DNA from: Oscillospiraceae bacterium
GTDB taxonomy: Bacteria > Bacillota > Clostridia > Oscillospirales > CAG-382
Assembly (NCBI GenBank): GCA_015064945.1
Contig: SVRF01000005.1
Span: 4,428 to 68,427 of the forward strand
Length of the DNA: 64,000 bases
Reading direction: 5' to 3'
Positions 6,218-33,472 of this stretch are shown in pieces. The translations under genes were made by a program, and so were the position numbers. Numbering within the stretch: position 1 is the stretch's first letter; every line of letters begins with the position of its first letter. The notes beneath the pieces were generated by a model that saw only the letters and a program-made list of their open reading frames with translations, did no database searches and had not been told where the DNA came from.

Positions 6218-6220
6218 AGC

Positions 6221-7807: not shown

Positions 7808-7931
7808 AAAACTTTACCTCTTTTCTGTGACAAATTTTATGCCATAATTATACGGATGTATTATAACACAGCCATTTATCTATGTCAACAAAATAAAAAA
7901 GGCATACAATGGTACAAAAGGAGGTTTTTAT

Positions 7932-13106: not shown

Positions 13107-13114
13107 GAGGATGT

Positions 13115-15204: not shown

Positions 15205-15230
15205 CACACAGATAAAGAAAGGATGTAATT

Positions 15231-16058: not shown

Positions 16059-16081
16059 GAGCTTTATAAGGAGGATTTACT

Positions 16082-16438: not shown

Positions 16439-16460
16439 GCGCACACATCGATTAAGTTTA

Positions 16461-16501
16461 TGCTGCCCCTTATTTTTGCCGTGCAAAAAGAAGGGGCAGC
16501 A
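16461..16501 (+). promoter_or_regulatory. long stem-loop inside the phage-like cluster (attenuator or processing site candidate)
   Basis: 19-nt arms tgctgccccttatttttgc / gcaaaaagaaggggcagca (one mismatch), 3-nt loop cgt. No clear T-run follows. Confidence 0.5.
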
Positions 16502-16532
16502 CGGCTTTATACCGAAGAAAAAGGAGGTCTTT

Positions 16533-16928
16533 ATGACAGGAAAAGATATATATGACCTTGCCATCGAACTGTTAGGATACAAAAACGCCGACGGCAGTGA
16601 TAATGCGGACTGCGAGGATTATCTTAACCGTTCGGTGGGGCTAATAAATATATTGCTTGCCGAAACTTTATGGCTTGACCGCCTGCTTAGGCAGGACAAG
16701 AGTGCCTCGCCGGTATATATAAGCTCTGTCGGCGATACGGTGCGCTGTAACGGCAGGCTTGCAAGAGGAGTGTTGCCCTTTGGGCTTGCCGCCATGTTAG
16801 CTATGGAGGAGGACATACAGCTGTATGACCGTCTGCACAAGCGATACACCGATGAGATAAACCGCACAAAGGAGGAGGTTGCAGGTATACGTCACGACAT
16901 CTGCGACTGCTACCCATACCATGGCTGA
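16533..16928 (+). CDS. phage-cluster protein (131 aa; head-tail connector/adaptor candidate)
   Basis: ATG 16533 after AAAGGAGG. The track start at 16476 is a TTG inside the hairpin. Function is inferred from position only. Confidence 0.55.
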   Translation: MTGKDIYDLAIELLGYKNADGSDNADCEDYLNRSVGLINILLAETLWLDRLLRQDKSASPVYISSVGDTVRCNGRLARGVLPFGLAAMLAMEEDIQLYDRLHKRYTDEINRTKEEVAGIRHDICDCYPYHG

Positions 16929-18612
16929 TAAATTTTTGCTTTCCGTCAAGAAATTTGCGGGGCTTGACCAAAGGGCAGGCTGTTCCTCCACAGCAGAAGC
17001 CTTCCCTACCCTTACCAATTTCAGGGTCAACCAAAGCGGACATCTGGAAAAGCGGGGCGGCTACGGGCTGATTTACGAAGGAGTAGGCGGCAAGGTGACA
17101 CAGCTGTGGAACAAAAGCGGTAAGGTGTTTGCCGCAAGAAGGCGAACTGCTTTCAGACTGGAGGACGAAAAATTTGTGGCTTTAGGAGATGCCGACAGCG
17201 ACGTTACGGGTTTTTTTGAGTTTTACGACCGTGTATACGCCCTTGGCGGAAATATTTATCACGCCGACCTCGAATACCTCCAACCGGTAAAGGGCTATAC
17301 TCCTATTGTAGCAACCGCCTGTTCACCGGACGGCGCAGGAACCTTGTACGAAAAGGTAAATCTTATAAACCCCAACAGACGCGTGCAGTTTAACGGTGAT
17401 GGCAAATCGTTGGTCTACACCCTGCCTGAAACAAACATTTACCTAATAAGTGACATAAAAATAAACGGCATACATAAATCAAGCGGATTTTCTTTTCACA
17501 CCTCAAGCAATACAGTGGAATTTGAGGAAGCGCCGCCCGAAGGTATAAACAACGTGGAAATAAAATACTGCGTACATGAAAATTCCGAAGAAAGCGCAAT
17601 GATTTACAAATGCCGTTTTGCCACGGTTTTTGAAAACAGACTGTTTTTGTACGGCAATCCCGATTATCCAAACTACGTTTTCCACTCGGAAACGGCAAAC
17701 GGTATACCCTCGGCAGAGTATTTTACGCCTATGGGATACCACGTCTTTGACAAGCCCGTAAGTTCTTTGGTGTCCTGCTACAACAGGCTGTTGATGTTCT
17801 GTGAAGACTGCGCTTATTACACCTATTCCGAGCTTAAGACCGACAGCCTTGGCAGGACTTATGCGTCATTTCCGCTGTTTGAGCTGAACGCAGGCAAGGG
17901 CAGCCTTGCAAAGGGCAATATGCCCACCTGCAACAACGAGCCGATAACCCTATGCGATGACGGCATAAACCGATGGCGCTCTACCTCTATAGCCGACGAA
18001 AGAACGGCGATGCCTTTTTCCGAAAGGGTATACAAGCATATTGCGGTACTTAAGGAGCACAAGGACGAGCTTGTAATTATCAATCGAAAGGCACGGTCGG
18101 AGCTGTGGTTTGCCGTTGATACGGGCGTGCTTATATACAACTACGCCGCCGACTGCTTTTATTATTACGCAATACCTCATGTGTCTGCCCTGTGCGAGCA
18201 CGGGGAAGGAGTATTGCTTGGTATAGGAACAAATATCTATTTGCATAGTGACAGCTATACAGATGATAACGGCGAACAGATAAAGGCAGAGTTTGCCACG
18301 CCCTATTGCACCTTCGGTGCGCCGTACAGCTTGAAAAACCTTAACGGGGCGGGACTTAGCGTAGAAAGCGGCGGCGAGCTTTTGGGTAATCTTAGGGTAC
18401 AGCGTGGGAATTTGACCGAGGAGCAAGCCCTAAGCGAGCGTTTTGTTCTTCCTGCTATGGAGCAGGACGGCTGCAGACTGGTGCGTTGCAGGCTTCATCT
18501 GAAACGATTTTACAGTTGTAAGCTTGTATTTTACACGTATTCTCCTAAGCTTTGTATTACCGAGCTTTGCCTGTTTGGAAAACAGCTTACGGGATTTACA
18601 AGGAACAACTGA
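16921..18612 (+). CDS. phage-cluster structural protein of unknown family (563 aa; tail hub/nozzle candidate)
   Basis: ATG 16921 (MADKFLLSV) overlaps the upstream stop by 8 nt. Beta-rich sequence with no recognisable motif. Confidence 0.6.
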   Translation: MADKFLLSVKKFAGLDQRAGCSSTAEAFPTLTNFRVNQSGHLEKRGGYGLIYEGVGGKVTQLWNKSGKVFAARRRTAFRLEDEKFVALGDADSDVTGFFEFYDRVYALGGNIYHADLEYLQPVKGYTPIVATACSPDGAGTLYEKVNLINPNRRVQFNGDGKSLVYTLPETNIYLISDIKINGIHKSSGFSFHTSSNTVEFEEAPPEGINNVEIKYCVHENSEESAMIYKCRFATVFENRLFLYGNPDYPNYVFHSETANGIPSAEYFTPMGYHVFDKPVSSLVSCYNRLLMFCEDCAYYTYSELKTDSLGRTYASFPLFELNAGKGSLAKGNMPTCNNEPITLCDDGINRWRSTSIADERTAMPFSERVYKHIAVLKEHKDELVIINRKARSELWFAVDTGVLIYNYAADCFYYYAIPHVSALCEHGEGVLLGIGTNIYLHSDSYTDDNGEQIKAEFATPYCTFGAPYSLKNLNGAGLSVESGGELLGNLRVQRGNLTEEQALSERFVLPAMEQDGCRLVRCRLHLKRFYSCKLVFYTYSPKLCITELCLFGKQLTGFTRNN

Positions 18613-18626
18613 GAAAGGATGAGTAA

Positions 18627-20006
18627 ATGGATTATCAAAAGCTTATATCGGATGTAAAAGACGATATTGACAATTACAGTTTTGATGACAGCGAATATCA
18701 AAAGATATACGACCGTGCGTACAACGATTTGAAAGCAAGCTATTACGCACAGAGCCAAGCGTTGAAGCAAAACTACTACGGCGAAAAGCAACGTGCCGCA
18801 GGTGAAAACGCCCTAAGCACGAGGAATGCAACGGAACAGCTTGCCGCAAGAGGCTTGGCGCACTCCGGAGAAAGCGCCGATTTGGTGATAGGTCAAAACG
18901 TAGCATTAAACAACAGGCTTTCGGAGTTGGCGCAAAGCAATACTGCCGCCGAGGCAAAGCTTGTGGACGACTACGGCAAACAGCGTGCAGAGCTTGGCAA
19001 AAGTATGGCGCAGCAAGTAACGGAAGCAAGCAAGGCTGAAAAAGAAAACCTGTATAAAAGACTTGAGCACCTTGAGTCACTTTATGCAGATGACCAAAAG
19101 CTTGAGGCAGAAAGACAGCAGTGGGAGGCAGAAATGGAAGCCGCCGAAGAAAAGTGGCAAAGCCAGCTTGATTTCGACCGCTACGCATTTAATACTAAGC
19201 TGGATGCGGATGGACAAAAATTAAAGGCAGAGATGGATGCGGAAGAGAACAAATGGCAAAGTCAGCTTGATGCTGACCGTTATTTCTTTGACAGCGAGCT
19301 AGCAGCAGAAAGAGAGCAATGGGAGGCGGAAATGGAAGCCGCTGAAGAAAAGTGGCAAAGCCAGTTAGCATCGGATCAGTATATGCACCAAGCAAGCATT
19401 AACGCCGACAAAGAAAAATGGCAGGCACAGTTAGAAAATGACCGCTACAAATTCAACACAGAGCTGAATATTGAAGAAAAGGAAGATCGCAAAGACAGAA
19501 TTTACTCTTGGTTTTCAAACGTTTTCGGGCGGTTATTCGGCATAGGCGGCGGTGAAAAAGGAGACGAAGCCGACGGGCTTGCCCCCGATGTTACCATACA
19601 GTCTATGGCTAATAACCTGATAAGCCGCTACGACGACAAAACAGGCGGGCTCAGCGAATACACGCAAGACCAAGTGTACAGCGATTTTGCAAGACTTATC
19701 GCCACATCGGATCTGGACAGTCAGTATGCCACGGAAGTGCTTGCGGCATTGCGAAGCAAGGGCTTTAACAAAGATTTTGACATAGAGCTTGCATCCAAAG
19801 ATTATGTAAAAGAAGGCTATACGCTGTATAACCAAACCTTTGACGATTATTATGAGGGTATGCTTTCCGACGGTACACCTGCCGACGACGCCCTTACTGC
19901 CGCAACCGAAGCGGCAGAAAACGCAGTTACGGAGCATATCGATGCCCAAAATCTTGACAGAAATACAAGACGGCAAGTGCTTAGGATGTACGGCATAGGA
20001 TACTAA
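18627..20006 (+). CDS. phage-cluster coiled-coil repeat protein (459 aa)
   Basis: Four KWQ(S/A)QL..D(R/Q)Y repeats within a Glu/Ala/Gln-rich helical middle. A roughly 50-nt DNA repeat occurs at 19119-19168 and 19317-19366. Confidence 0.65.
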   Translation: MDYQKLISDVKDDIDNYSFDDSEYQKIYDRAYNDLKASYYAQSQALKQNYYGEKQRAAGENALSTRNATEQLAARGLAHSGESADLVIGQNVALNNRLSELAQSNTAAEAKLVDDYGKQRAELGKSMAQQVTEASKAEKENLYKRLEHLESLYADDQKLEAERQQWEAEMEAAEEKWQSQLDFDRYAFNTKLDADGQKLKAEMDAEENKWQSQLDADRYFFDSELAAEREQWEAEMEAAEEKWQSQLASDQYMHQASINADKEKWQAQLENDRYKFNTELNIEEKEDRKDRIYSWFSNVFGRLFGIGGGEKGDEADGLAPDVTIQSMANNLISRYDDKTGGLSEYTQDQVYSDFARLIATSDLDSQYATEVLAALRSKGFNKDFDIELASKDYVKEGYTLYNQTFDDYYEGMLSDGTPADDALTAATEAAENAVTEHIDAQNLDRNTRRQVLRMYGIGY

Positions 20007-20811: not shown

Positions 20812-20816
20812 TGCTT

Positions 20817-20892
20817 TGGAGCGGATTACGGGGCTCGAACCCGCCACCTCGACCTTGGCAAGGTCGCGCTCTACCAAATGAGCTAAATCCGC
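20817..20892 (-). tRNA. tRNA-Gly(GCC)
   Basis: Reverse complement GCGGATTTAGCTCATTTGGTAGAGCGCGACCTTGCCAAGGTCG...AATCCGCTCCA folds as a cloverleaf. Anticodon loop TTGCCAA; CCA encoded. Confidence 0.93.
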
Positions 20893-20897
20893 AAAGG

Positions 20898-20974
20898 TGG
20901 CGATCCGGATGGGACTCGAACCCACGACCTCTAGCGTGACAGGCTAGCGTTCTAACCAACTGAACTACCGGACC
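20898..20974 (-). tRNA. tRNA-Asp(GTC)
   Basis: GGTCCGGTAGTTCAGTTGGTTAGAACGCTAGCCTGTCACGCTAGAGGTCGTGGGTTCGAGTCCCATCCGGATCGCCA; anticodon loop CTGTCAC. Confidence 0.93.
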
Positions 20975-20977
20975 ATA

Positions 20978-21053
20978 TGGAGCTGATGATGGGAATTGAA
21001 CCCATGACCTCATCCTTACCAAGGATGCGCGCTACCGCCTGTGCCACATCAGC
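20978..21053 (-). tRNA. tRNA-Thr(GGT)
   Basis: GCTGATGTGGCACAGGCGGTAGCGCGCATCCTTGGTAAGGATGAGGTCATGGGTTCAATTCCCATCATCAGCTCCA; anticodon loop TTGGTAA. Confidence 0.93.
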
Positions 21054-21059
21054 ATTTTG

Positions 21060-21135
<76 letters not shown>

Positions 21136-21165
21136 AAATAAAGATTTGCGCCATTTAGAAAAGTT

Positions 21166-21240
21166 TGGAGGCGCCACCCGGAATCGAACCGGGGAATAAA
21201 GGTTTTGCAGACCTTGGCCTTACCGCTTGGCGATGGCGCC
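21166..21240 (-). tRNA. tRNA-Cys(GCA)
   Basis: GGCGCCATCGCCAAGCGGTAAGGCCAAGGTCTGCAAAACCTTTATTCCCCGGTTCGATTCCGGGTGGCGCCTCCA; anticodon loop CTGCAAA. Confidence 0.93.
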
Positions 21241-21261
21241 GTCCCTAACGCCCCAACGGGC

Positions 21262-21337
21262 TGGAGCGGATTACGGGGCTCGAACCCGCCACCTCGACCT
21301 TGGCAAGGTCGCGCTCTACCAAATGAGCTAAATCCGC
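21262..21337 (-). tRNA. tRNA-Gly(GCC), second identical copy
   Basis: Sequence identical to 20817-20892. Confidence 0.93.
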
Positions 21338-21381
21338 ATATAATGATGGGTGCGAAACCATCGCTGGTTTGCAAAAGATTT

Positions 21382-21458
21382 TGGCGATCCGGATGGGACT
21401 CGAACCCACGACCTCTAGCGTGACAGGCTAGCGTTCTAACCAACTGAACTACCGGACC
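21382..21458 (-). tRNA. tRNA-Asp(GTC), second identical copy
   Basis: Sequence identical to 20898-20974. Confidence 0.93.
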
Positions 21459-21731: not shown

Positions 21732-22655
21732 TTATCCGTTCTTTTTACGTAGGATAAAATACAAAACCACACCGCCGATAACCAAAACGGCACCTGCTAT
21801 GGCAATTACAAGCCCATAGGGGAAACCGTCTTCATCGGATGAGGAGTCAGTGCTTGCGGAAGCGGAATTGCCGTCTGCATTATCGGGCGCTACGCTTTCC
21901 TCTGCGTCAGTGCTACCGATAGCTCCGCTGCTTTCTTCAGCTTCGGAGTTTTCGGTTATCGCACTGCTTTCTGCAGCTTCGCCGCTTTCTTCGGTTTTGG
22001 AGCTTTCCTCGGATACGTCACTCTCCTCAACCTCAGAACTTTCTGCAGAAGCGCTGTTTTCGCCGCTCTCTGTGCTTTCCGCCCCCTGTCCGTCGCCTAC
22101 GCTTATATCAAGCTTTGCACCGTTGGGAGGGAAATTTTCAAGCTCGGGGCTTACCATCATCATATAAACGTTTTCGTCCGCCTTATGCTTTATTTCAAGG
22201 CTTGTATCACCGGTCTTCTTTGCGGTGAAAACAAGAATAAAGCCCAAGGTATCGTCCTCGGTTACGGTATACTTATAAAAATCCAGCTCCTCACTGAGAG
22301 GGACATCCGGCACAACACGAAGCCAGCAATAGCCCGTGCCATCATTGGGAGAAAACAAAAAGCTGTAGTTTGTGCCCCAGGACTGAGGAATAATTGCGTC
22401 TTGATAGCTGAGCTCCAAAGCCTCTGAGTCGTAAAACAAAGGGAGGTCACAGGCTATGATGCCATCCTCAAGACTGATGTTATTTATAAACACCTTAACC
22501 TCTATAAGGTCGCCGACCTTAACATCTGTATTTTCACAAACGAAAACCAAGTCCGAAACGGGTGCATCGTCCATTTTTGCAAAAGCGCTTAAGCCTGCGG
22601 ACAAAGCAACCAGCATAAATGCGCAAAGGGTTGCTGAAACAATTCTTTTAATCAT
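21732..22655 (-). CDS. membrane-anchored cohesin-domain protein (single-cohesin scaffoldin candidate)
   Basis: Signal peptide MIKRIVSATLCAFMLVALSAGLSAFA. Cohesin-like signature VKVGDLIEVKVFINNISLEDGIIACDLPLFYDSEALELS. Ser/Glu-rich linker and C-terminal TM helix plus RKKNG. Start is ATG 22655 or TTG 22667. Confidence 0.65.
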   Translation of the reverse strand: MIKRIVSATLCAFMLVALSAGLSAFAKMDDAPVSDLVFVCENTDVKVGDLIEVKVFINNISLEDGIIACDLPLFYDSEALELSYQDAIIPQSWGTNYSFLFSPNDGTGYCWLRVVPDVPLSEELDFYKYTVTEDDTLGFILVFTAKKTGDTSLEIKHKADENVYMMMVSPELENFPPNGAKLDISVGDGQGAESTESGENSASAESSEVEESDVSEESSKTEESGEAAESSAITENSEAEESSGAIGSTDAEESVAPDNADGNSASASTDSSSDEDGFPYGLVIAIAGAVLVIGGVVLYFILRKKNG

Positions 22656-22731
22656 AGATTTGAACAAGCGCCTGCCATAACAGCAGGCGCTTTCTCCTTA
22701 AATTATAGCAAAAAATCAATTGCGGGGGTAC

Positions 22732-24885
22732 TTAAGAATGGATCATCTTTCTTACGTGAAGCAGGTCGGCTGTGGAAATAGCGCCCTTTTCAATTATGGA
22801 AGCTGCGGTATAGTAGATACCTGTGAGGGGAACACGGCCGGTAAGATGCTTTCTGATAATTGCATAGTCGGTGGAAGAAACAGATGCGTCACCGTCTATA
22901 TCGCCGTAAACGATAAGGGTGCAAGAGTCCTCGCCATCGGCAGACTTAAGAATGGTACCTGTACCAACCTTTGCGTTATCTGCAACAGCGTTGCCGTTCT
23001 TATCAAATACCTGTATATCGTCTACAAACATTTCCTTAATTTCGGAAGCAACGGAGCCTGCTTGATAGAAGCCCGTAAAGAGCTTTTCTTCAGTGTTGGC
23101 ATCATAATCCATCTCATAAGATTCGCCAAGGGTAAAGTTAGCAACGCCGTAAACCGCAGCGTCTGCCTTGGGTGCGCCTGCGCCGGTATTCTTTGCAGGA
23201 GTTGCAACAACAGAGTTGTCAGCAGAGGAGTAAAGAACGCCGCCCTTGGAATAGTAGTATGTGCAGGTGGGAGATACATTGATGTTAACAAGGTTTGCGG
23301 AATCGAACGTAGGAGAACCCCAAGTGATAGTGTTGGGGATATAAACGCTCTTAAGATTGCTCTTACCGGAAAATGCGGAGCCGGAGATACCGGTTACTCT
23401 GCAGTAGGTGTTAGAGCCGCTTACGTATACGTACTGGGGAATTTCTACGTTGGTAACGGTGTTGGCAACTTCAGTAGTAACTTCATAGGAGCCGCCGCCC
23501 TGAAGCATTTCATAATACTTGGTAACGTAAGTCATAAAGTACTTCCACATATCACCGGTGTTACGGGTGTAGGACTTAGAGGAAGTGTTGTAACGCATCT
23601 GCTGAGGACAGTTCTTTTCAGTGGAGTCCCAATGCTGACGGATACCTGTGCCGGGAGAACCGTCGCCGGGGTTAAGGCCCCATCTTACGCAAAGCTCTGC
23701 AGTAAGCAAACCCGCTCTGCGGCAGGACTTGTAGAAGCCGTTATCAAGGAAGGACTGCCAATTGGTGGTAAAGTCAACCCAACCGTTAACAGCAACTTCC
23801 ATACCGATGCCGTAGTAGTTACCGGTACCGGTAGAGCCGTCGCCTGCGTGCCAAGCAACTTCGTTATCGGGAATACCCTGATATATACCGTCAGTACCTA
23901 CCGTGTACTGCCAAGAAGATGTGGTACAAGCGGAGTTGGAGGTCTGATAGTTGTGGTTTGCCTTTGCGGTTGCGCCGGAAGCATAGTTACCTGTGTTGTG
24001 GATAACTACGTACTTTTTATTGTTGTTAACAGTACCGGGACGGTTATTTCTGGACTTGGAAACGAAGTCAGCCGTAACAGTGGTCTGATCTTCGGTACCC
24101 TTACCGATTATCCAAGTAGTGTTGTCAACATTACCGGAAGCGGAGCAGGGAGTGATGCCCGTGCCCTGAACAACTTCTGTCTTGGTGTAGCTGTTAGTAT
24201 AGGAGGTTACGTATGCAGTGCCTGCGGTGGTGTTTGCGCTGTAAACCAGACCCTGGCTGTCAGCCGCACCGGAAGCGCTGATGGTAGTAACGTCTGCCCA
24301 GATGTAGCAAGAGATCTCAGAGCAAGCGATCTTGCCGCTGTGCTTGATCTCAATTTTAATGTACTGCGCAGCACAGCCCTTCTCCTTGGTGAAGCCGATG
24401 CTGTATGCGGTTTCATCAGCGGGGGACGCAACGTTCTCACCCGCACCTGCGAAATTATATGTAACGCCATCATCGGATACATAGTAATTTACAGCAGTGG
24501 GAAGAGTGTAGCCGTTGCTGGAAGAATTGTGGAAGCGTGCATAGAAATCGGTAAAGCCGATAGCTTTGTAGCCCAGGTTGATAACAACGGTGGTTGTACC
24601 GGAGCCTGTTACTACAGACAGATAGGAGTTACCGGAGCCGGAGCCGCCGTCGGTAAGACGAACGCCGTCATCGGGATAAGTAGCGTCCGCAGCGGAGCCG
24701 GAATAGGAAACTGTGTAAGACTTAGAACGGGTAGCAGCGATCTTTTGACGCTGTGCGCTTACTGTGGTGGTCTTATCCACATCATACACCCAAATGGATG
24801 CGGCAGCCTCTGACAAGGAAGCGAATGCCGAGAAAATGGAAACCAACATAACAAGAGAAAGCGCTGTTGCAATAAACTTTTTCAT
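22732..24885 (-). CDS. secreted multidomain protein: F5/8-type-C-like module, Amidase_2 (PGRP-type N-acetylmuramoyl-L-alanine amidase), BspA-type LRR, dockerin
   Basis: ATG 24885 after AAGGAGG, with a signal peptide. Amidase_2 pattern: YVVIHNTGN...EVAWHAGDG...YGIGMEV...HWDSTEKNCPQ. Dockerin: GDIDGDASVSSTDYAIIRKHL...GAISTADLLHVRKMI. Confidence 0.8.
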   Translation of the reverse strand: MKKFIATALSLVMLVSIFSAFASLSEAAASIWVYDVDKTTTVSAQRQKIAATRSKSYTVSYSGSAADATYPDDGVRLTDGGSGSGNSYLSVVTGSGTTTVVINLGYKAIGFTDFYARFHNSSSNGYTLPTAVNYYVSDDGVTYNFAGAGENVASPADETAYSIGFTKEKGCAAQYIKIEIKHSGKIACSEISCYIWADVTTISASGAADSQGLVYSANTTAGTAYVTSYTNSYTKTEVVQGTGITPCSASGNVDNTTWIIGKGTEDQTTVTADFVSKSRNNRPGTVNNNKKYVVIHNTGNYASGATAKANHNYQTSNSACTTSSWQYTVGTDGIYQGIPDNEVAWHAGDGSTGTGNYYGIGMEVAVNGWVDFTTNWQSFLDNGFYKSCRRAGLLTAELCVRWGLNPGDGSPGTGIRQHWDSTEKNCPQQMRYNTSSKSYTRNTGDMWKYFMTYVTKYYEMLQGGGSYEVTTEVANTVTNVEIPQYVYVSGSNTYCRVTGISGSAFSGKSNLKSVYIPNTITWGSPTFDSANLVNINVSPTCTYYYSKGGVLYSSADNSVVATPAKNTGAGAPKADAAVYGVANFTLGESYEMDYDANTEEKLFTGFYQAGSVASEIKEMFVDDIQVFDKNGNAVADNAKVGTGTILKSADGEDSCTLIVYGDIDGDASVSSTDYAIIRKHLTGRVPLTGIYYTAASIIEKGAISTADLLHVRKMIHS

Positions 24886-24958
24886 TGTATGTTCCTCCTT
24901 AACAATAATATACAAAGTTTTTTCGGATGGATATTACACCCATTATCATTCTATGATA

Positions 24959-24987
24959 ATTATAAACTGCAGGAAAATTTTTGTCAA
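24959..24987 (-). promoter_or_regulatory. consensus sigma-A promoter of the amidase-dockerin gene
   Basis: On the minus strand: TTGACA (24987-24982), 17 nt, TATAAT (24964-24959). The palindrome attatcat-tct-atgataat (24942-24960) overlaps the -10 and the start region. Confidence 0.7.
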
Positions 24988-25157
24988 GGCGAAACGCCGA
25001 AAAAACGGGTTGTACGGTGCGTAGAAAAACTGCCCTTGTTTTTGTTATTTTTGCACAAAAGCTTATTTAATAATATAACGCACAAATGTTAACAAGCCGT
25101 TCAATAGTTAAGTATATACTGTTACGAACTTACAAATTGAGAAAAGTGAGCGCAAGA

Positions 25158-25661
25158 ATGACCGAGCTTATTTTAATGCAACTGTTGGTTTGCATAGTAC
25201 AATATTTCATTGCAACCAGTGAAAACATACGCAACATTTTTGTTGTTACCCTGCTGTTTAACGCGTTTAACCTGCTGTGCTATTATCTCAACGGAGATAT
25301 GGCAACCGTGTACTCCTACTTGGTTATATGCACACGGTCGGTTATCTACATTTACCGTGACAAGATAAAGAAGCATAAATGGCATTTTGCCATACCGATT
25401 TCGGCAATAGTGATACAAACAGCCGTTGGCTTTACCGCCATAGAAAATCCGTGGCAGCTGCTGCCCATAATTGCGCCCTGCTACGTAAACTATTACCTGT
25501 GGTTTTACGAAAGCACCCAAAAGCTTCGTTTGGGCAACATAGTTAACAACGGGCTTTGGGGAATATACAACTTTGCCACAGGGCTTTGGATAATCGGCAT
25601 TGTAAGGGCGATCACCGTAGCAATGAACGCCGTCTCTTATAAAACGCACAAAAAGGTATAA
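25158..25661 (+). CDS. small multi-pass membrane protein (YgjV-like?)
   Basis: ATG 25158 (MTELILMQLL). Five to six hydrophobic segments. The family call is tentative. Lower GC than its neighbours. Confidence 0.5.
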   Translation: MTELILMQLLVCIVQYFIATSENIRNIFVVTLLFNAFNLLCYYLNGDMATVYSYLVICTRSVIYIYRDKIKKHKWHFAIPISAIVIQTAVGFTAIENPWQLLPIIAPCYVNYYLWFYESTQKLRLGNIVNNGLWGIYNFATGLWIIGIVRAITVAMNAVSYKTHKKV

Positions 25662-25721
25662 CCGTCACACAAAGAAGGGCTGTGAAAAACTTTTGTTTTT
25701 CACAGCCCTTTTAGTTGAATT

Positions 25722-28622
25722 TTAATTTCCGCTTGTAAGGCGTTTTCTTATAATAACATAGTCGGTGGTGGTAATACTGCCGCTGTTGTCCATATCGCCT
25801 GCGCAGCTGTAGGCGCCGCTCAAAGCGTTCCTCTGCGAAACGTCCTTACGTACACAAAGCAGGTCTGCGGTATTAACAACGCCGTCGCCGTTAACGTCAC
25901 CCACATAATAGAGCTGATAACTTTCACCCGTTGCTTTAACGGTTACGGTTGCGCCGGTCGTGTTACCGGTTACGCTTACCCTATTATCCAAGAAGAGGTT
26001 GGCGATCGCATCGACGCTCATGCCCGCATCAGGAAGAGAAACATAGCCTTCTGCCTTAAATACGGAACCGGAGCCCGGTGCAACAACACCGAACTCGGGT
26101 GCGGCGTAGCTTACGCTTTCACTTGCCGCCGAGCCAAAGCTTATCCTTGCGCCGGGATAAACCGTCTGTGTTGCCACATCGATGCCCGTAAGATAAACAA
26201 TGTCGCCGGCTTTTGCTGCCATTGCGCTTGCATTGCCGCTGTATGCCGCACCGTGAAGACCTATAACAATGCCGTTTGCGGGAGCGGTGCAGGTATAAGT
26301 ACTGTCACCGTTGGCTGAGTAGGTGGAAGCAACCACGTATCTGCCGTTTGCAGAGTCGTAATTACAAATGATGGTGCGCGCCCAGGTAAGGTTTGCGTTG
26401 GTAGAAGTAAGCGTGCCCAAGCTTGGGGTAAAGATAACTGCGTTATCCGTATTGATACGGGTGTTAAAGGACGTGAAATTACTGCTGTCCTTGCCGCCTT
26501 CGCCGTAAACGCTTACCTCACCCACAAACAGGTGAGAGCTTGTGAAGAATATGCGGAATATTATATATCTGTCGGTTGCAACGGCTGTGAAAACAGACTC
26601 GTAAGGTATGACCTGATATGCATCAGTCTGTGCACTTACTATGGTAGGTGCAAGAGATGAGTGATAGTAATAGGAACTGCCGTCCTCCCCCGCGTATACC
26701 TCTATCGACTTAGGTGCACTGATGCCCCAAGGGGTATAATGGCAAACAGAAACGCCGAAGCCCGTTATGTTTTTAACTGCGCCTAAGTCCACCTTTATAT
26801 CAGTATAGCTGCCCTTGCCCTCTATATAGCCGTGGGCAGAATTAACGTGATATCCCGTCCAGGGCGCAGAAGTAGCCGTGGCGCCGAAAAGCACCCCGTC
26901 AGTCATCTCGCAAATACCCGTATCAGGATATGCGGTATTAGCATCGTGGGTATCGTAAGCTCCACCCAAAGAAATCCTGTCGCCTTTGGTGCTTGTATCG
27001 GCAATAAGTGCGTTTATCTCGGCTGCAAATTGCATTTTTTGTGCTTCTGTATAAGCAGAAGAGTTAACCATGCGTTTCCCTTCTACATAAGCATAGTCTA
27101 TTCTGTCAAGTGCCAGATCACTGTAAAGAGTGGTGTTTACGGAAGCCGCCGCACTTAGTGCACTTTGAAGCATAGCCTTGCCGCTTCCAAGCTCTCTAAG
27201 CTCCATTATAGCACGCTTGTGGTCACCCATAACGCTGGTGCTTCTGTTATAAATCGCCTTGGCCTCTGTCAAAGCCGCCTGCAAAGCCGCACTGCTGTTA
27301 ACGGCAAGTACGCCCTCCGCCTCGGTAATTTTTGTCTGCAGAGCAGATTTTACCGTCGATTTGGTAGCGCTTGAACGGCTGACTATAAGGATACAGTCCG
27401 CTATTGCTCTGGTACTGGACTGAACATATCCCGCACTGCCGCTGCCCGTGTTGGAAACATACATTGCACTGGAGCCGCCGCCGTCCATACGGATGACGTT
27501 TACACACCCCATCTGCTCCATTGCGTCTGCCACGTCTCTGAGAGTAAGAGAGCCGCCGCTGCCGGTAGAGCCGCCCTCACTTGTGAAGAATACATAGCTA
27601 CCGTCTGCCTTTTGACCGAAGGCTGTCCAACGTGCCTGAAGGGTAACGGAATGAGTACCGATAGTGGAGTCGATGCGGGTACGGTCAACGCCGTCCTTAA
27701 CCAGCCAACCTACATTGGCGATAACGGAGTTTGCTTTTTCCATAATCTCCTTGGAGGCGCTTACGGTCTCCTCTGTATTAATGGTGATGGTATCCCCTGC
27801 TTTAACACCGGAAATATAGCTTTCATAGGACGAACCGCTACGCATAAAGAGAATAAAGGTGTCTGCATACACGCCGCTTTCACCCAGAGCGCCGCCGTAA
27901 GTGTTTTTGGTAACGGAAACAACCTCGCCCACAAGAGTCTGTCCCACTGCAAGATCGGTATTATCAACCTTTTTGCAAAGAATCTCTGTACCGGGGCAAA
28001 CGGAATAGCTGTCACACTTAGTACCGCAAGAGGTATCAAAATAATAAAAACGCTCGCTCCAACTGCTTGCAGAGGCAGAGCCGCTTGTTTTGTTTATGTA
28101 ATAAATCATATCGGCATAATCCTTGCCGCCTATATTCAGGGTATATTTCAAGTTGCTGTTTACAACATTCATACTGCCGTCGGAGCCGAATGCAACAACC
28201 TCACCCGAAGCACCAAGGTGGCCTGCAACAACCTTACCGTTGGAAATGCAAACGCTGGTAAGAGTGCCGTAGGGGGTGCCCATAGAGAAGAACGAGCCGT
28301 TAATTACACCTGCCACGTTGTAGCCGTATTTGTTTGTTGCAATACTGTATTGGGTTGCAAGGGTTCCGGATGTGCCTGCATACCCCTGAAAAGACATAGG
28401 TATAAACCCGTTAGCGGGATTAAAGGTAAGAGTCGTACACGCAAGGGTGTTTCCGTTCTGTCCGCTGGTAACGTTGTACTTTGCATAAGTAACGCCCGTT
28501 TGAACAGTATGTCCTGCAGTTTTGCTCATACCGAACGCCGCAGACGTATGTATGGGACATACGGAAAGCGCCATTACAAGCACTAAAAGCACCGCCGTCA
28601 GCTTGGAAAAAAGCTTTTTCAT
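25722..28622 (-). CDS. secreted phosphodiester glycosidase (NAGPA/DUF2233-like) with F5/8-type-C-like module and dockerin
   Basis: Signal peptide. GVINGSFFSMGTPYG...RWTAFGQKADGSYVFFTSEG...VIRMDGGGSSAMYV is typical of the phosphodiester glycosidase family. Dockerin: GDVNGDGVVNTADLLCVRK...DMDNSGSITTTDYVIIRKRL. Confidence 0.75.
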   Translation of the reverse strand: MKKLFSKLTAVLLVLVMALSVCPIHTSAAFGMSKTAGHTVQTGVTYAKYNVTSGQNGNTLACTTLTFNPANGFIPMSFQGYAGTSGTLATQYSIATNKYGYNVAGVINGSFFSMGTPYGTLTSVCISNGKVVAGHLGASGEVVAFGSDGSMNVVNSNLKYTLNIGGKDYADMIYYINKTSGSASASSWSERFYYFDTSCGTKCDSYSVCPGTEILCKKVDNTDLAVGQTLVGEVVSVTKNTYGGALGESGVYADTFILFMRSGSSYESYISGVKAGDTITINTEETVSASKEIMEKANSVIANVGWLVKDGVDRTRIDSTIGTHSVTLQARWTAFGQKADGSYVFFTSEGGSTGSGGSLTLRDVADAMEQMGCVNVIRMDGGGSSAMYVSNTGSGSAGYVQSSTRAIADCILIVSRSSATKSTVKSALQTKITEAEGVLAVNSSAALQAALTEAKAIYNRSTSVMGDHKRAIMELRELGSGKAMLQSALSAAASVNTTLYSDLALDRIDYAYVEGKRMVNSSAYTEAQKMQFAAEINALIADTSTKGDRISLGGAYDTHDANTAYPDTGICEMTDGVLFGATATSAPWTGYHVNSAHGYIEGKGSYTDIKVDLGAVKNITGFGVSVCHYTPWGISAPKSIEVYAGEDGSSYYYHSSLAPTIVSAQTDAYQVIPYESVFTAVATDRYIIFRIFFTSSHLFVGEVSVYGEGGKDSSNFTSFNTRINTDNAVIFTPSLGTLTSTNANLTWARTIICNYDSANGRYVVASTYSANGDSTYTCTAPANGIVIGLHGAAYSGNASAMAAKAGDIVYLTGIDVATQTVYPGARISFGSAASESVSYAAPEFGVVAPGSGSVFKAEGYVSLPDAGMSVDAIANLFLDNRVSVTGNTTGATVTVKATGESYQLYYVGDVNGDGVVNTADLLCVRKDVSQRNALSGAYSCAGDMDNSGSITTTDYVIIRKRLTSGN

Positions 28623-28661
28623 AATCTATCCCTCCAAATAATTATACTTTATCTGTTAACC

Positions 28662-28690
28662 ATTATACAGATAAACCGCAAAGCTGTCAA
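28662..28690 (-). promoter_or_regulatory. consensus sigma-A promoter of the phosphodiester-glycosidase gene
   Basis: On the minus strand: TTGACA (28690-28685), 17 nt, TATAAT (28667-28662). The inverted repeat tatctgt..acagata (28650-28673) overlaps the -10. Confidence 0.7.
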
Positions 28691-28761
28691 TATTACAAAA
28701 CCAAGTTTGGTAAAAAACTGAGCCTTTATACTATTTTTGTGCATTTTTAGCAAAATAACTG

Positions 28762-28790
28762 TTGCTTTGCGTTGTTATTTATGATATAAT
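28762..28790 (+). promoter_or_regulatory. candidate sigma-A promoter of the 1544-aa gene
   Basis: TTGCTT, 17 nt, TATAAT, with an extended -10 (TGATATAAT). Confidence 0.6.
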
Positions 28791-28837
28791 TGCTATATAT
28801 TTTATTGCTGTACTAAAGTTAGGAAAGGAAATTTGAT

Positions 28838-31800
28838 ATGAAAAAGCTTAAAAAAACACTTGCATTGCTTCTGTCAATGCTGTTTATTCTCCCTCTCCTC
28901 CCAACCATAGGCGAATCCGTAATGGTTGATGCCGCAACAGGTCTTGAAAGCGGCACGGTTGTTTATTACGAAGACTTTAATTATGCAAACAACAGCTCTA
29001 AGGCGGCTGTGCTTTCTACCTTGGGCTGGACTTTGTCAGAGGATCTGAACGCCAACAAAACCAACTACTCCTTTGTAGACGGCAGACTTTTGTGCGACAG
29101 CTTAAGCACGGGCGCTACTGCCGACTCTTACGTTACGGTACTTGACGATGCCGATATGGGAGAAATTATTAAAAGCGACTACTCCATCAGCTATAAAATC
29201 ACCTATGTAGAAGCGGCAAACTACACCCGTTACGGCGCTTTTATCTACAATTACAACGGATATAAAAGCTACAATTCCGTACACCTGCGCATTGCCGGTT
29301 ACGGCAACAACCAGGTCAGGACATCAACTACTTGGAAGGATTATGAAGCAGCCGGATCCTATTATATGAAAGCCACGGGCACTTCCTCTGTCTCCTACAA
29401 GCTTTTCGGCGTAAATTGCCTTGAGGCAAACGCTTCCTCCAATACCGCCTACCCCTTTGTAGGCAAAGAGTTGACCGTAAGGATAGCCATTGACGCAGAC
29501 GTAGGTCCTACCGTATACGTCAACGGCACAAAGCTTTCCGTACCCACCGCCACTTATAAAGAGCTTTTCCTTTCCACAGCTCAGTACGCGGCGGCAATAG
29601 CACTTAAGAACAGCAAAGAGGTTAAGTACTATATAGACGACTTTATGGTTTACACGGGCCTTGGCGAAGTGCCCACAAGTGTTACAAAAGATAAAGTCAC
29701 CTATGTTTCTCCCATAGAAAAGGCTGATCCCAACGCAATTAAGGTTTTGTCCTTTAATACCCTTTTTGAAAACCAAAGTACAGATGTTTTCGGCAACGGC
29801 ATTACCCGTACCTACCACATGAGCAACGTTGTTTCCGGCTTGCGTCCCGACATTATCGGCACGCAAGAGCGCAACGCCACCAACAAGTCCGGCGTTACCG
29901 CCCTTCTTCAGTCCGATGGCGGCTACGGATTGGCTGACGAATACAGAACAGACACAAGCGTTGCAAACGTTGTTTCTTACGTACCCATACTGTATAACAC
30001 GAGCAGATTCAGCCTTGTGGAAAATGATGCTACCAACAACAATAACGCCCACGGCGCATTGCTGTTTGACAAGAGCTACAACATAAAGGATATGACCGCA
30101 GCTCAGATTGCCGCTTATGCAGGCACCAAGGGCTTGGCGTGGGCAGTGCTTAAGGACAAGAAGACAGGCGGCTACGTGCTTGCGCTTAACGCACACTTTG
30201 CCCTTAACACCAGCTCTTATACAGGCTACTCCGACGAAGAAGCCAAAGAAGCAAGACTTTCCAATGCGGCACAGGCATACGAAAAGATGGAGGAGATATA
30301 CGCCGTATACGGTGTTATCCCCACAGTATTTACAGGCGACTTTAATATGCGTGCATACGACCCTGCATATAAATTGCTTACGGAGTACTTTGAAAGCTCG
30401 ATATACGGAAGCACCGACTTTATTAGATACGAATATTCCATGAACAAGGTTACGGGCTACGACTTTACACGTGCTCCCAACGCACCCATAGATCATATAT
30501 TCTACACCGACCAAAGCCTTGTACCCACCAGGTATTACGTAGGCAACAAGGCACCGGAGCTTATGATAGCCTCCGACCACTTGCCCGTTATGACCACTTT
30601 CTCCTACAAAGCCGTGAACGCCCCCACTCCCTCGCACCACACCAATATATACAGCGGCACGCAATTTGTTACTTTAACGGGTGACGGACTTATATATTAC
30701 ACCACCGACGGTACAGATCCCAGAAGCTCTGCCACCAGAAAGCTTTACGGCAAAGCAATATCCGTAAACGACGATACGGTTATTAAGAGCTGTTGTAAAG
30801 TAAACGGAGTTTACAGCGATGTTAACCGTGTTACTCTGTTTTTCTCTGCTCCTATATATATAACCGAGGCGATTAAAAACACCGCCGGCACCGACCACCT
30901 TGAAGGCATTGAGATATACAACGCCTCTGACGTAGAAATAGACCTTAGCGATTTTGTGCTGTGGTCCTACAGCAACGCAACGGAATCCACCTGCCTTAAT
31001 GTGGCAAACGCAAGCGTTACCTCTCAAATGTATATGGGGAAACACGACGGAGAATATGTTCTGCCTGCAGGCGAGACGGGTTTTTGCCCCATCGTATTTT
31101 CCGACAGCTATCTTATAAAAGACAAGATTTCCGCCACGGAAAGCGCATACCTTGTTACCGTTAACGAGGATGCCACCAAGGTCACCTACCATTTGGACAG
31201 ATATGCGGCAGCAGTGGCTTATACCGGTATGGGCAACATATCGACAGACCGCATCTTCCCCATAGACCGCACCGCAAGAAGTATAGGCTATACCGACAGC
31301 GGCGTGCTTGTAAAGCGCCACGACTATTATAATGCTACAGACGGGGCGATCAATAATATTTCAAGCTCATTCAATATGGGCAACAGCAACTACACAAAGC
31401 TGTTTATCACTATAGCAACCGAGGACGAAGTTTCCAAAGCGTTTTGCGTGTGCAACCTTGACTCTACCGACGGCGGTATAACCAGCACTACGGATTCCGC
31501 AGGCACGGTTACCACAACGGTAAAAGAAGGTTCATTCAACTTCACTCCCTCCTCTGACAAGCTTATGACGACCCAAAGCTTTACCGAAAAAGGCTACACC
31601 TTAGGTTCTCTTACCACGGAGCAGGTAAGTGCATTTAATACGCTTGAAGCTGAGAGGTCTTTGGAAAACGGCATCGCTATACACAATGCGGCAGAGTTTG
31701 CGGCAATGAGTGCGGGCGGCAATTATTATCTTGCCAACGACATCAGCATAAGCTCCACCTATTCCGCCGTGTTTACAGGCACGCTTAACGGTATGGGGCA

Positions 31801-33472
31801 TACGGTTACCGCAAGCGTACCTATGTTTGAGGATATGAGCGGTACGGTTAAGAACCTTACCGTTGCAGGCAACATTACCGTAAGCGAAGGCTACAACAGC
31901 GCCGTTTCCAAGCAAGTGACGGGTAACGCACGTTTTGAAGACGTAATAATCAACGCAAACCTTGCAGGCGGCTCCTCCACAGGCGGCCTGTTGGGCTACG
32001 GCGTAAGCGGAAACTCCATTGTTGTGCTTCGCTGCATAAACAACGGCAACCACAGCGGCACAGGACAGATAGGCGGTCTCGTAGGCTATACACAAGGTAT
32101 AACCTTATCCATGGACGAATGTATAAATTACGGTAAGATCAGCTCTACCTCTTACAGCGGCGGTCTTATCTGCCGTTTCGGCAAAAACGCCGCAACCATG
32201 GCATACCGTTGCAACATCACCAACTGTATCAACTACGGGGAGGTAAGCTCAACCCGCACCCGCGCCGCAGGTATAATCAGCTATACCGTAGGTAATGTAA
32301 CCATATCCGGCTGTATAAACCACGGCTACATCCACGCAGAGGGCTCCCCTGCCGATTTTAACGCAGGCGGTATTTACGGTCAGGGCGGCTCTACATACAC
32401 CTCCGGTACGGAAACCCTTAACACCAAGAACAGCCTTGCAATCAGCGACTGCTACAATTACGGCAACGTGGAGGGTACCTTCTCTGCAGGCGGCATCGTG
32501 GGCAAGACCTCCGGCGTTGCACCTGCAAGCGGCTATATTTACAGCATCGAGCGTTGTGGTAACGAAGGCAACATAAGCGTTACTGACGGCGGCGCTACTT
32601 CTCCTACCAGAGGCGCCGGCGGTATAGCAGGGTATTTCTACGGCACCACCAACCACAGAATTTCTTCCTGCTACAACGTGGGCAACATAAGTGCTGTTTC
32701 TGACTCTACCTCCGGTCCTATGAAGGTATGCGGCATAATAGCCTACTTCAACGGCACAAAGGTGTATTTTGAGAACTGCTACAATGCAGGCAAAATAACC
32801 GCAAGCGGCACGCCGGCTGCGTACCAACTGTATTATAACAACCACGCCACAGGCGGCGACAAGAATTATATAAGGAACAACTATGCGTTAGCGGTAAGCG
32901 GCGCAGTTTACGAAAAGAACGGCACGCAGGCTTCCTCCTGTACAACTTTCACCTCCGCACAGCTTGCAGACGGCAGTCTTAAGACAAGCATAAATAAAGG
33001 AGCAGGCGAAACCGTGTATTTCCAACAGGTAGGCACGGAAACCCACCCCGTACTGCGTGAACACAACGGCTTTAAGCTTTGGGACATAGTTTTGAAGGAC
33101 AAAGCAGACTATAAGGAAACCGAAAGCTTTATCTACAGGGTAATGCCTAACACCGCCGCAAAGGACTTTGAAGACCGCTTCTTAAGCAAGGTAAGAGTAT
33201 TTGACGGCGAGACAGAGCTTAATCAAAGCGCAAGCCTTAAAACGGGACAAACGGTGTGCTCCTTTGACCGCAGTGTAGAAATGGCTGTTGCCGTTATAGG
33301 CGATATGGACGGCGACGGCGACATTACATCCACGGACTACGCTGTAATATTGAAGTGCATAGGCGGCAGAAATGCCCTGCCCGAGCTTCAAAAGGTTGCG
33401 GGTGATATTGACGACAGCGGCCACATAAGTACTGTAGACCTGCTTTGTGTAAGAAAACAACTTAAAGGGTAA
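28838..33472 (+). CDS. giant secreted protein: LamG-like N-domain, endonuclease/exonuclease/phosphatase (EEP) domain, CHB_HEX_C-like, lamin-tail domain, GLUG-type repeat array, dockerin
   Basis: EEP motifs: LSFNTL, IGTQE, LNAHF, FTGDFNM, PIDHIFY, SDHLPV. LTD: IYITEAIKN..EGIEIYNASDVEIDLSDFVL. Eight or more GG(L/I)xGY-type repeats. Dockerin: GDMDGDGDITSTDYAVILK...GDIDDSGHISTVDLLCVRKQL. Confidence 0.8.
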   Translation: MKKLKKTLALLLSMLFILPLLPTIGESVMVDAATGLESGTVVYYEDFNYANNSSKAAVLSTLGWTLSEDLNANKTNYSFVDGRLLCDSLSTGATADSYVTVLDDADMGEIIKSDYSISYKITYVEAANYTRYGAFIYNYNGYKSYNSVHLRIAGYGNNQVRTSTTWKDYEAAGSYYMKATGTSSVSYKLFGVNCLEANASSNTAYPFVGKELTVRIAIDADVGPTVYVNGTKLSVPTATYKELFLSTAQYAAAIALKNSKEVKYYIDDFMVYTGLGEVPTSVTKDKVTYVSPIEKADPNAIKVLSFNTLFENQSTDVFGNGITRTYHMSNVVSGLRPDIIGTQERNATNKSGVTALLQSDGGYGLADEYRTDTSVANVVSYVPILYNTSRFSLVENDATNNNNAHGALLFDKSYNIKDMTAAQIAAYAGTKGLAWAVLKDKKTGGYVLALNAHFALNTSSYTGYSDEEAKEARLSNAAQAYEKMEEIYAVYGVIPTVFTGDFNMRAYDPAYKLLTEYFESSIYGSTDFIRYEYSMNKVTGYDFTRAPNAPIDHIFYTDQSLVPTRYYVGNKAPELMIASDHLPVMTTFSYKAVNAPTPSHHTNIYSGTQFVTLTGDGLIYYTTDGTDPRSSATRKLYGKAISVNDDTVIKSCCKVNGVYSDVNRVTLFFSAPIYITEAIKNTAGTDHLEGIEIYNASDVEIDLSDFVLWSYSNATESTCLNVANASVTSQMYMGKHDGEYVLPAGETGFCPIVFSDSYLIKDKISATESAYLVTVNEDATKVTYHLDRYAAAVAYTGMGNISTDRIFPIDRTARSIGYTDSGVLVKRHDYYNATDGAINNISSSFNMGNSNYTKLFITIATEDEVSKAFCVCNLDSTDGGITSTTDSAGTVTTTVKEGSFNFTPSSDKLMTTQSFTEKGYTLGSLTTEQVSAFNTLEAERSLENGIAIHNAAEFAAMSAGGNYYLANDISISSTYSAVFTGTLNGMGHTVTASVPMFEDMSGTVKNLTVAGNITVSEGYNSAVSKQVTGNARFEDVIINANLAGGSSTGGLLGYGVSGNSIVVLRCINNGNHSGTGQIGGLVGYTQGITLSMDECINYGKISSTSYSGGLICRFGKNAATMAYRCNITNCINYGEVSSTRTRAAGIISYTVGNVTISGCINHGYIHAEGSPADFNAGGIYGQGGSTYTSGTETLNTKNSLAISDCYNYGNVEGTFSAGGIVGKTSGVAPASGYIYSIERCGNEGNISVTDGGATSPTRGAGGIAGYFYGTTNHRISSCYNVGNISAVSDSTSGPMKVCGIIAYFNGTKVYFENCYNAGKITASGTPAAYQLYYNNHATGGDKNYIRNNYALAVSGAVYEKNGTQASSCTTFTSAQLADGSLKTSINKGAGETVYFQQVGTETHPVLREHNGFKLWDIVLKDKADYKETESFIYRVMPNTAAKDFEDRFLSKVRVFDGETELNQSASLKTGQTVCSFDRSVEMAVAVIGDMDGDGDITSTDYAVILKCIGGRNALPELQKVAGDIDDSGHISTVDLLCVRKQLKG

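Follow-up and report, generated by a model that had tools for sequence, protein, structure and literature searches.

A conserved gene pair predicted to tether a peptidoglycan amidase to the cell membrane through a single cohesin in an Oscillospiraceae bacterium

Background

The closest described counterparts of the locus analyzed here, which lies at positions 21732-33472 of a 64-kb stretch of DNA from an Oscillospiraceae bacterium (hereafter the window, the part of this genome that was examined), are OlpA and OlpC of C. thermocellum and ScaE of R. flavefaciens, all of which carry one cohesin on a cell-bound protein and capture dockerin-bearing enzymes directly. OlpA and OlpC are held via SLH modules and ScaE via a sortase/LPXTG signal, whereas the single-cohesin protein encoded in the window is held via a transmembrane helix, an arrangement that has also been described, with a C-terminal anchor, in rumen Ruminococcus spp. 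and R. difficilis (PMC13463774). Together with this anchor, the locus encodes three signal-peptide proteins with C-terminal dockerins. While the known monovalent anchors serve cellulosomes or amylosomes, the conserved adjacent partner of the window anchor is a peptidoglycan amidase.

Peptidoglycan-active enzymes have been found in cohesin-dockerin networks of gut Clostridia before. Rumen dockerin-lysozymes and D-Ala-D-Ala carboxypeptidases have been proposed to serve in attack or defence (Bensoussan 2017, PMC6487960), and ScaK of R. champanellensis is reported to join a GH25 muramidase to a cohesin within a cell-free cellulosome (Morais 2016). ScaK differs from the present case, in which it is the amidase that bears the dockerin and the cohesin sits in the membrane, and in which no plant-fibre enzyme is found among the scanned window genes. 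The NanJ/GH84 modules of C. perfringens also employ cohesin-dockerin pairs outside plant-fibre degradation, but they link secreted glycosidases and toxins to one another and act on host glycans, with neither a membrane anchor nor wall-lytic cargo. The original prediction for this locus, made from the DNA sequence, was of a cohesin-dockerin complex attacking or remodeling microbial envelopes or matrix, which was taken to be an unusual use of cellulosome-type assembly. Because of ScaK and the rumen enzymes, that attack hypothesis is already in the literature, and the use is less unusual than it was held to be. The arrangement is a variant of non-cellulosomal cohesin-dockerin surface display, for which similar ideas have been published; what is new here is the conserved amidase/cohesin pair, its membrane anchor, and the NAGPA and EEP dockerin cargo, of which we found no description in the literature.

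Results

The monovalent cohesin anchor gene (21732-22655, minus strand) encodes 307 amino acids from the ATG at 22655, with the open frame reaching a TTG at 22667. On the same strand, a signal peptide (22578-22655) precedes the cohesin module (22086-22577), which is followed by a disordered acidic Ser/Glu linker of about 90 residues (21819-22085) and a C-terminal transmembrane helix with an RKK tail (21735-21818). The match to Pfam Cohesin PF00963 in the frame 21732-22667 (minus strand) is of partial coverage (E-value 2.4e-5, 25.0 bits versus a gathering score of 24.1), and the orthologue in lineage L013 scores 25.6 bits over profile positions 6-113. This marginal sequence match is backed by a structure model: the AlphaFold2 prediction scores about 90 in the predicted local distance difference test (pLDDT) for residues 30-190 and places a helix at residues 280-306, its cohesin module shows the nine-stranded beta-sandwich fold that superposes on solved cohesins, and the best 50 PDB matches returned by Foldseek are all cohesins, with E-values down to 8.7e-9. 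The C. perfringens NanJ/GH84 cohesins are the best structural matches (2vo8, with a target-normalized TM-score of 0.83, 2w1n and 2jh2) at a sequence identity of 12-17%, and OlpA (3ul4) and OlpC (4dh2) are among the best as well. A word-indexed search returned six relatives of this cohesin, and a search of 1.84 billion cluster representatives gave 47 at E<=1e-3. Some 30 of the 47 measure 256-360 residues, and each of the 21 that we inspected has a signal peptide, a cohesin, an acidic linker and a transmembrane helix. The same anchor architecture recurs in all nine lineages compared (see below), and a local hidden Markov model finds exactly one cohesin of the family per locus. Since each anchor carries one cohesin, and no multi-cohesin scaffoldin of the kind that defines cellulosomes and amylosomes is encoded here, the protein would be a tether for single enzymes, not the scaffold of the assembled complex that had been proposed.

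We compared all lineages with retrievable DNA, namely, the window species, L009/L010, L011, L012, L013, L017/L018, L019, L022 and L023/L024. In all nine, the amidase-dockerin gene lies next to the cohesin-anchor gene and in the same orientation. By contrast, the NAGPA-dockerin gene and a small neighboring gene, ygjV, are confined to the window species, L009, L011 and L013, and the EEP-dockerin gene to the window species, L009 and L011, while the upstream flank in L022 and L023 holds unrelated genes. Because this flank differs by lineage, what had been described as a four-gene locus, and does contain the four large genes predicted, is a deeply conserved core pair to which the NAGPA and EEP genes were added in sub-clades.

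The conserved cargo is encoded by the secreted Amidase_2-dockerin gene (22732-24885, minus strand; 717 amino acids with a Sec signal peptide), with the Amidase_2 domain at 23602-24015 and the dockerin at 22741-22908 on that strand. Pfam detects both in the frame 22732-24915 (minus strand; Amidase_2 PF01510, E-value 6.6e-20, 72 bits; Dockerin_1, E-value 9.3e-6), and the catalytic domain is flanked by conserved modules that are weakly discoidin-like and LRR_5-like. The best solved match is XlyA (3hmb), and the closest solved catalytic domains are those of XlyA from PBSX and PlyL from prophage LambdaBa02 (E-values 1e-18 and 9e-4, respectively), whose zinc ligands and catalytic Glu are conserved in the window amidase and kept in nine orthologues (H of HNT, E of GMEV, and H-x7-C). 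However, XlyA and PlyL are lysins that phages make in the cytoplasm and release through holins, and they carry wall-binding domains, whereas the window amidase comes with a signal peptide, a dockerin and three further modules. We considered the amidase as a prophage endolysin and rejected the idea: the protein carries a signal peptide, its gene has a conserved promoter of its own, and phage records contain neither this architecture nor the cohesin. PHROG endolysins match the catalytic domain of the amidase only, phage genomes match only 23% of the protein (the catalytic part), and neither the full amidase-dockerin architecture nor the cohesin occurs in 50,697 phage records; the features of a phage lysis cassette (no secretion signal, a holin, a phage genome) do not describe it. 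Orthologues of the protein fall into about 20 clusters at 58-94% identity. Among more distant relatives, P0029, P0031 and P0032 (about 1040 amino acids) contain GHL10 in the same polypeptide and have no cohesin gene nearby, and L020 (2287-6904) and L021 (2369-6672) carry two amidase(-dockerin) paralogues in tandem, those of L021 adjoining a polysaccharide deacetylase.

All dockerin peptides quoted in the original prediction are present in the window translations, and the three locus dockerins exceed the gathering score of PF00404 (22.9 bits) with 26.2 bits (amidase), 39.7 bits (NAGPA) and 32.3 bits (EEP). Of the paired F-hands ascribed to each of them, both are canonical in the NAGPA and EEP proteins; in the amidase protein one is canonical and the second is degenerate, without calcium-binding residues; the acidic ligands of this second loop (AASIIEKGAIS) are missing in all nine lineages. 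The three share the helix motifs S/T-T-D-Y-x-I-I-R-K and x-D-L-L-C/H-V-R-K, in swapped order in the NAGPA protein. Cohesin and dockerin are the fastest-evolving modules, with between-clade identities of 27-32% and 40-50%, respectively, whereas the amidase core is 69-83% identical. The R-K pair has been lost from two L013 dockerins, those of the amidase and NAGPA proteins, and the cohesin of this lineage is much less acidic; across lineages, cohesin and dockerin net charges are anticorrelated (Spearman -0.72, n=9 related lineages, uncorrected for phylogeny). We discarded "mirror-tree" correlations as evidence of coupling since they are high for every pair of modules and thus uninformative. The predicted cohesin-dockerin link at the locus is further backed by the adjacency of the two genes in nine lineages. 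Taken at the sequence level, it is probable that the amidase dockerin binds the adjacent cohesin, and somewhat less so that the NAGPA and EEP dockerins do.

A fourth dockerin protein is encoded at 51150-52253 (plus strand; 367 amino acids). It combines a tandem acidic repeat, DDYSSEYISDAEST, with a dockerin of another, R. flavefaciens-like type, NSLDAAQILKYDA, that lacks the helix motifs of the locus; a relaxed Pfam scan of this protein gave nothing usable outside the dockerin. The same dockerin type is also found on adaptors P0049, P0066 and P0068 of other organisms, which carry cohesins of the window family.

The secreted NAGPA-type phosphodiester glycosidase-dockerin gene (25722-28622, minus strand) encodes 966 amino acids, with the core NAGPA match at 27384-27815 and the dockerin, containing the two helix motifs, at 25737-25901 on the same strand. 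Both are detected by Pfam in 25722-28622 (minus strand; NAGPA PF09992, E-value 1e-20, 75 bits; Dockerin_1, E-value 5.7e-10). The DGGGS motif, which is invariant in NAGPA and carries the catalytic Asp (PMC13474241), is intact, RMDGGGS aligning with the motif of structures 6pky and 3ohg. A natural fusion of NAGPA, Amidase_2 and SH3_3 exists (P0036). LTD domains generally accompany cell-surface phosphoesterases, and fusions of NAGPA domains to such enzymes have been reported (PMC11488536). Between the NAGPA and amidase genes lies ygjV, encoding an Imp-YgjV family inner-membrane protein (25086-25661, plus strand; Pfam E-value 9.8e-14); the gene points away from the amidase gene and towards the NAGPA gene. 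It holds the same position in L009, L011 and L013 and is absent from L017/L019, where the corresponding upstream position is taken by a short NAGPA paralogue with its own N-terminal transmembrane helix and no dockerin.

The secreted EEP phosphoesterase-dockerin gene (28838-33472, plus strand) encodes 1544 amino acids. An N-terminal region of 290 amino acids without an assigned domain is followed, on that strand, by the EEP domain (about 29720-30607), a CHB_HEX_C/Fn3_assoc module (30647-30823), an LTD-like segment (30848-31078), a Gly-rich repeat region without a Pfam match (about 31715-32887) and the dockerin (33299-33463). In 28838-33472 (plus strand), Pfam detects Exo_endo_phos (E-value 1.5e-5, 25.3 bits versus a gathering score of 24.5), CHB_HEX_C/Fn3_assoc and Dockerin_1 (E-value 1.2e-7), while the LTD match (E-value 2.4e-6) is below its gathering score; relaxed scans of the N-terminal 290 residues and of the Gly-rich repeats yielded nothing usable. 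A word-indexed search with the EEP-LTD region returned two proteins only (P0042 and P0043), and the catalytic positions N23, E60, D217/N219, D268/H269 and D296/H297 are invariant among these two and the window protein. Compared with the PDB, the EEP profile matches 3g6s (1.7e-14), 3mpr (1.9e-7) and 4c1r (1.1e-6), all Bacteroides EEP proteins, and no nuclease is among its matches at E<=1; a fold search gave the same top three, from a low-confidence model (pLDDT 51, three-sequence alignment), and is relied on here only in combination with the profile matches. The mannose-6-phosphatase BT3783 of B. thetaiotaomicron (4c1r) is thus among the nearest solved relatives of the domain. The protein had been read as an ExeM-type nuclease acting on DNA. 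The EEP domain itself is confirmed, whereas the nuclease and DNA assignment is weak in view of these relatives. ExeM has the order LTD, OB-fold (essential), EEP and GlyGly-CTERM (PMC6085458); the window protein resembles ExeM and Xds in being secreted and in combining EEP with an LTD-like domain, but here the LTD-like segment follows EEP, no OB-fold region is detected with Pfam, and no NCBIfam nuclease family matches. To judge from its sequence, the protein is probably not an ExeM-type nuclease.

The Pfam run thus supports each catalytic and docking module that had been assigned, Amidase_2, NAGPA and EEP among them, and alignment shows the catalytic residues intact in all three enzymes. The prediction that the cargo contains no plant-polysaccharide hydrolase agrees with Pfam as well, which finds no hydrolase for plant fibre or starch in any of the three cargo proteins or in the other window genes scanned. 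The view of a non-cellulosomal cohesin-dockerin locus with cargo families acting on bacterial envelope polymers stands. The accessory modules fared differently. GLUG modules are not detected by Pfam even at E<=1, and the LRR_5 match is below threshold in the window proteins; discoidin-like modules are weak in the window proteins (E-values 0.05 and 0.02) and gain support only via orthologues and precomputed matches. NCBIfam has no family for any of the four large proteins (E<=0.01).

Consensus or near-consensus sigma-A promoters had been predicted for all three dockerin genes. Perfect TTGACA-17-TATAAT sites do precede the amidase gene (24959-24987, minus strand) and the NAGPA gene (28662-28690, minus strand), while the EEP gene has only a weaker promoter-like site with a 9/12 match (28772-28801). 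In all nine lineages a perfect TTGACA-17-TATAAT lies 65-95 nt upstream of the amidase gene, and the NAGPA site is conserved in L009 and L011. Since the consensus promoter of the amidase gene is conserved, strong vegetative expression is suggested, although perfect TTGACA-N16-18-TATAAT sites number eight in the 64 kb (at 7860, 24959, 28662, 35804, 36679, 50873, 53659 and 60632) versus 0.01 expected from shuffles, and so are common in this genome. The interval from the amidase stop to the cohesin start (22656-22731, minus strand) contains an extended -10-like site (TGcTATAAT) and an AAGGAG, together with a perfect GC hairpin of 8 bp, GCGCCTGC...GCAGGCGC. An upstream open reading frame of eight codons also lies there, its stop codon overlapping the ATG of the cohesin gene. 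The hairpin and upstream frame may serve translational coupling or attenuation.

Directly downstream of the cohesin gene, ARAGORN identifies seven tRNA genes (Asp, Gly, Cys, Phe, Thr, Asp, Gly; 20817-21458, minus strand), a cluster that is both a conserved neighbor and a site of strain variation. L003, a contig of the same species that is 99.9% identical across the locus, diverges exactly at 20814-20817, the 3' end of tRNA-Gly (L003 11805-12705), and has a dCMP deaminase gene in place of a Germane lipoprotein gene and a phage-like block; the tRNA-Gly 3' end looks like an integration or variation hot spot. From L003 we do not conclude that the block is an insertion the genome can do without, since the L003 contig ends 0.9 kb past the divergence and another element may be inserted there. 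The block itself (11389-20006, plus strand) comprises nine head and packaging genes (small and large terminase, a P22/SU10-type portal, capsid and five others), and no integrase, replication or lysis genes were found in it. The same block stands beside the conserved pair in L017 (14601-22154), L019 (14136-22157), L022 (13580-21503) and L023 (14451-22163). Its capsid is 89-91% identical to that of the window where the amidase is 60-70% and neighboring genes are 30-70% identical, and the nearest phages are only about 30% identical. The block may be a domesticated element or one resembling a gene transfer agent (GTA).

The window is chromosomal, containing an ATP synthase operon, asd and ispH-S1, and contigs identical or near-identical to it occur in JGI, ENA and Logan metagenomes. 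The closest genomes are metagenome-assembled genomes labeled Eubacteriales or Clostridia, two of them from goat caecum. Further wall-related genes lie at 4586-8672, where two tandem GHL10-PASTA paralogues are accompanied by an Amidase_3-SH3_3 protein. An 814-amino-acid internalin-like LRR protein (46422-48866, plus strand; LRR_4/LRR_8) has no detectable dockerin or cohesin. At 55855-58110 (plus strand), ATP synthase b, the C-terminal half of delta (OSCP) and alpha share one stop-free frame of 751 amino acids, either a triple fusion or a sequencing artefact.

Discussion

We tentatively favor, with a confidence somewhat short of even, a surface tethering of enzymes that dismantle peptidoglycan and phosphodiester-linked polymers, with the producer's own wall as the most likely target because the anchor sits in the producer's membrane. 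The single-cohesin protein, exported via Sec, would be held in the cytoplasmic membrane by its C-terminal helix, and the acidic, disordered linker would project the cohesin into or through the wall. Secreted enzymes with a cognate dockerin would then be captured, one per anchor, so that the three enzymes compete for anchors. The ancestral and always-present cargo would be the XlyA/PlyL-type N-acetylmuramoyl-L-alanine amidase, stripping stem peptides, beside which the window clade would have recruited the NAGPA and EEP enzymes. NAGPA would cut a sugar-1-phosphate diester, leaving a sugar-6-phosphate, and the EEP enzyme would remove the 6-phosphate, as its nearest characterized relative does. 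Together, the three chemistries could amount to a stepwise dismantling of peptidoglycan and its attached glycopolymers (teichoic-acid-like, or an N-acetylglucosamine-1-phosphate (GlcNAc-1-P) linkage unit) during turnover, remodeling or cell separation. We infer the pairing of NAGPA with a sugar-6-phosphatase-like EEP by analogy with the NAGPA "uncovering enzyme" and BT3783, which share the two-step logic from diester to 6-phosphate to free sugar but belong to other organisms and act on other substrates (lysosomal N-glycans and yeast mannan); for neither NAGPA nor the BT3783-like EEP family did we find a bacterial wall substrate shown in the literature.

Several points weigh against this account. 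Self-targeting is an argument from location, and the weakly discoidin-like and LRR-like modules would also suit the binding of foreign surfaces. The EEP assignment rests on relatives in the PDB, where ExeM-like EEP nucleases have no solved structure to compare with, and the EEP model was of low confidence (pLDDT 51). The charge correlation comes from nine related lineages, the sequence covers 64 kb, so that other cohesins may lie elsewhere in the genome, and the conserved phage-like block next door is left unexplained by tethering.

ScaK reportedly lyses other species, and the enzymes of the window could likewise be contact weapons or matrix-dispersal enzymes directed at the peptidoglycan, teichoic acids or capsules, and extracellular DNA of other microbes, giving a competitive advantage in the gut, which we consider unlikely. 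The enzyme families do act on bacterial envelope polymers, the extra binding-type modules, although weakly supported, would fit, and there are precedents in R. champanellensis ScaK, a GH25 lysozyme on a cohesin protein, and in the attack mechanism proposed for rumen dockerin-lysozymes and D-Ala-D-Ala carboxypeptidases (PMC6487960). However, because of the membrane anchor and a linker of some 90 residues, reach beyond the own wall would be limited. Moreover, a pair conserved with its consensus promoter in nine lineages is unlike an accessory, regulated weapon, no immunity gene is evident, and the DNA-targeting component is doubtful. Nothing shows that other microbes are the target, as had been supposed, and action on the own wall fits the anchor, the stable chromosomal pair, the conserved amidase promoter and the membrane-anchored NAGPA paralogue of L017/L019 at least as well. 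Nutrient scavenging, in which tethered enzymes digest wall debris of dead cells near the cell and nearby transporters import the sugars, peptides and phosphate, would draw on the combination of NAGPA with a sugar-6-phosphatase-like EEP, which mirrors the stripping of phosphomannan by Bacteroides (BT3783 being among the nearest relatives), on the conserved YgjV membrane protein inside the locus, on an SBP_bac_5 peptide-binding protein and other wall-active genes in the window, and on the origin of the relatives in ruminant gut metagenomes. Yet the link to a transporter is putative, SBP_bac_5 is 11 kb away, past the phage-like block, and the deeply conserved core consists of amidase and anchor only; we regard scavenging as improbable. 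To be treated with similar reserve is a dedicated tethered pathway that dismantles the junction of peptidoglycan and phosphodiester polymers, in which NAGPA would act on the GlcNAc-1-phosphate linkage or on poly-sugar-1-phosphate teichoic acids, the BT3783-like EEP would take off the phosphate remaining at position 6, and the amidase would remove the stem peptides.

Two further explanations concern the partners of the pair. The dockerins might dock to cohesins elsewhere in the genome, the clustering being historical: the window shows only 64 kb of the genome, the fourth dockerin is of a different type with no partner in sight, and the distant amidase-dockerin relatives P0031, P0028 and P0030 have no nearby cohesin gene. 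This is quite improbable, since the two genes remain strictly adjacent in nine lineages although the flank turns over, both cohesin and dockerin evolve unusually fast, the two L013 dockerins changed in parallel, and the charges are anticorrelated. Alternatively, the amidase/anchor pair might work with the phage-like block, a domesticated or GTA-like element, for instance in particle release or local opening of the wall, given that block, tRNA cluster, anchor and amidase-dockerin have remained linked in five lineages whose other flanks differ, that the capsid is so much better conserved than the amidase, and that the amidase core is endolysin-like. We hold such a functional link to be very unlikely, because the cohesin is in no phage record and phages match the amidase over its catalytic 23% at most; in addition, the amidase bears a Sec signal peptide, its gene is preceded by a conserved sigma-A promoter of its own, the tRNA cluster separates the pair from the block, which is encoded on the other strand, and the adjacency may be inherited synteny beside a tRNA integration site.

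Conclusions

If surface tethering of wall-active enzymes proves true, cohesin-dockerin would be a general, exchangeable hold for wall hydrolases on the Gram-positive surface, replacing SLH, LysM, SH3 or choline-binding modules, and the locus would provide a first testable substrate hypothesis for bacterial NAGPA-family proteins and secreted BT3783-like EEP proteins. If the junction of peptidoglycan and phosphodiester polymers is indeed what these enzymes take apart, this would be the first described catabolic route for the murein linkage unit and the first role assigned to bacterial NAGPA proteins in Gram-positive walls. Were the target instead foreign cells, the locus would represent a contact-dependent lytic device of gut Clostridia. 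In addition, the amidase/anchor pair offers a compact system for measuring the co-evolution of the cohesin-dockerin interface.

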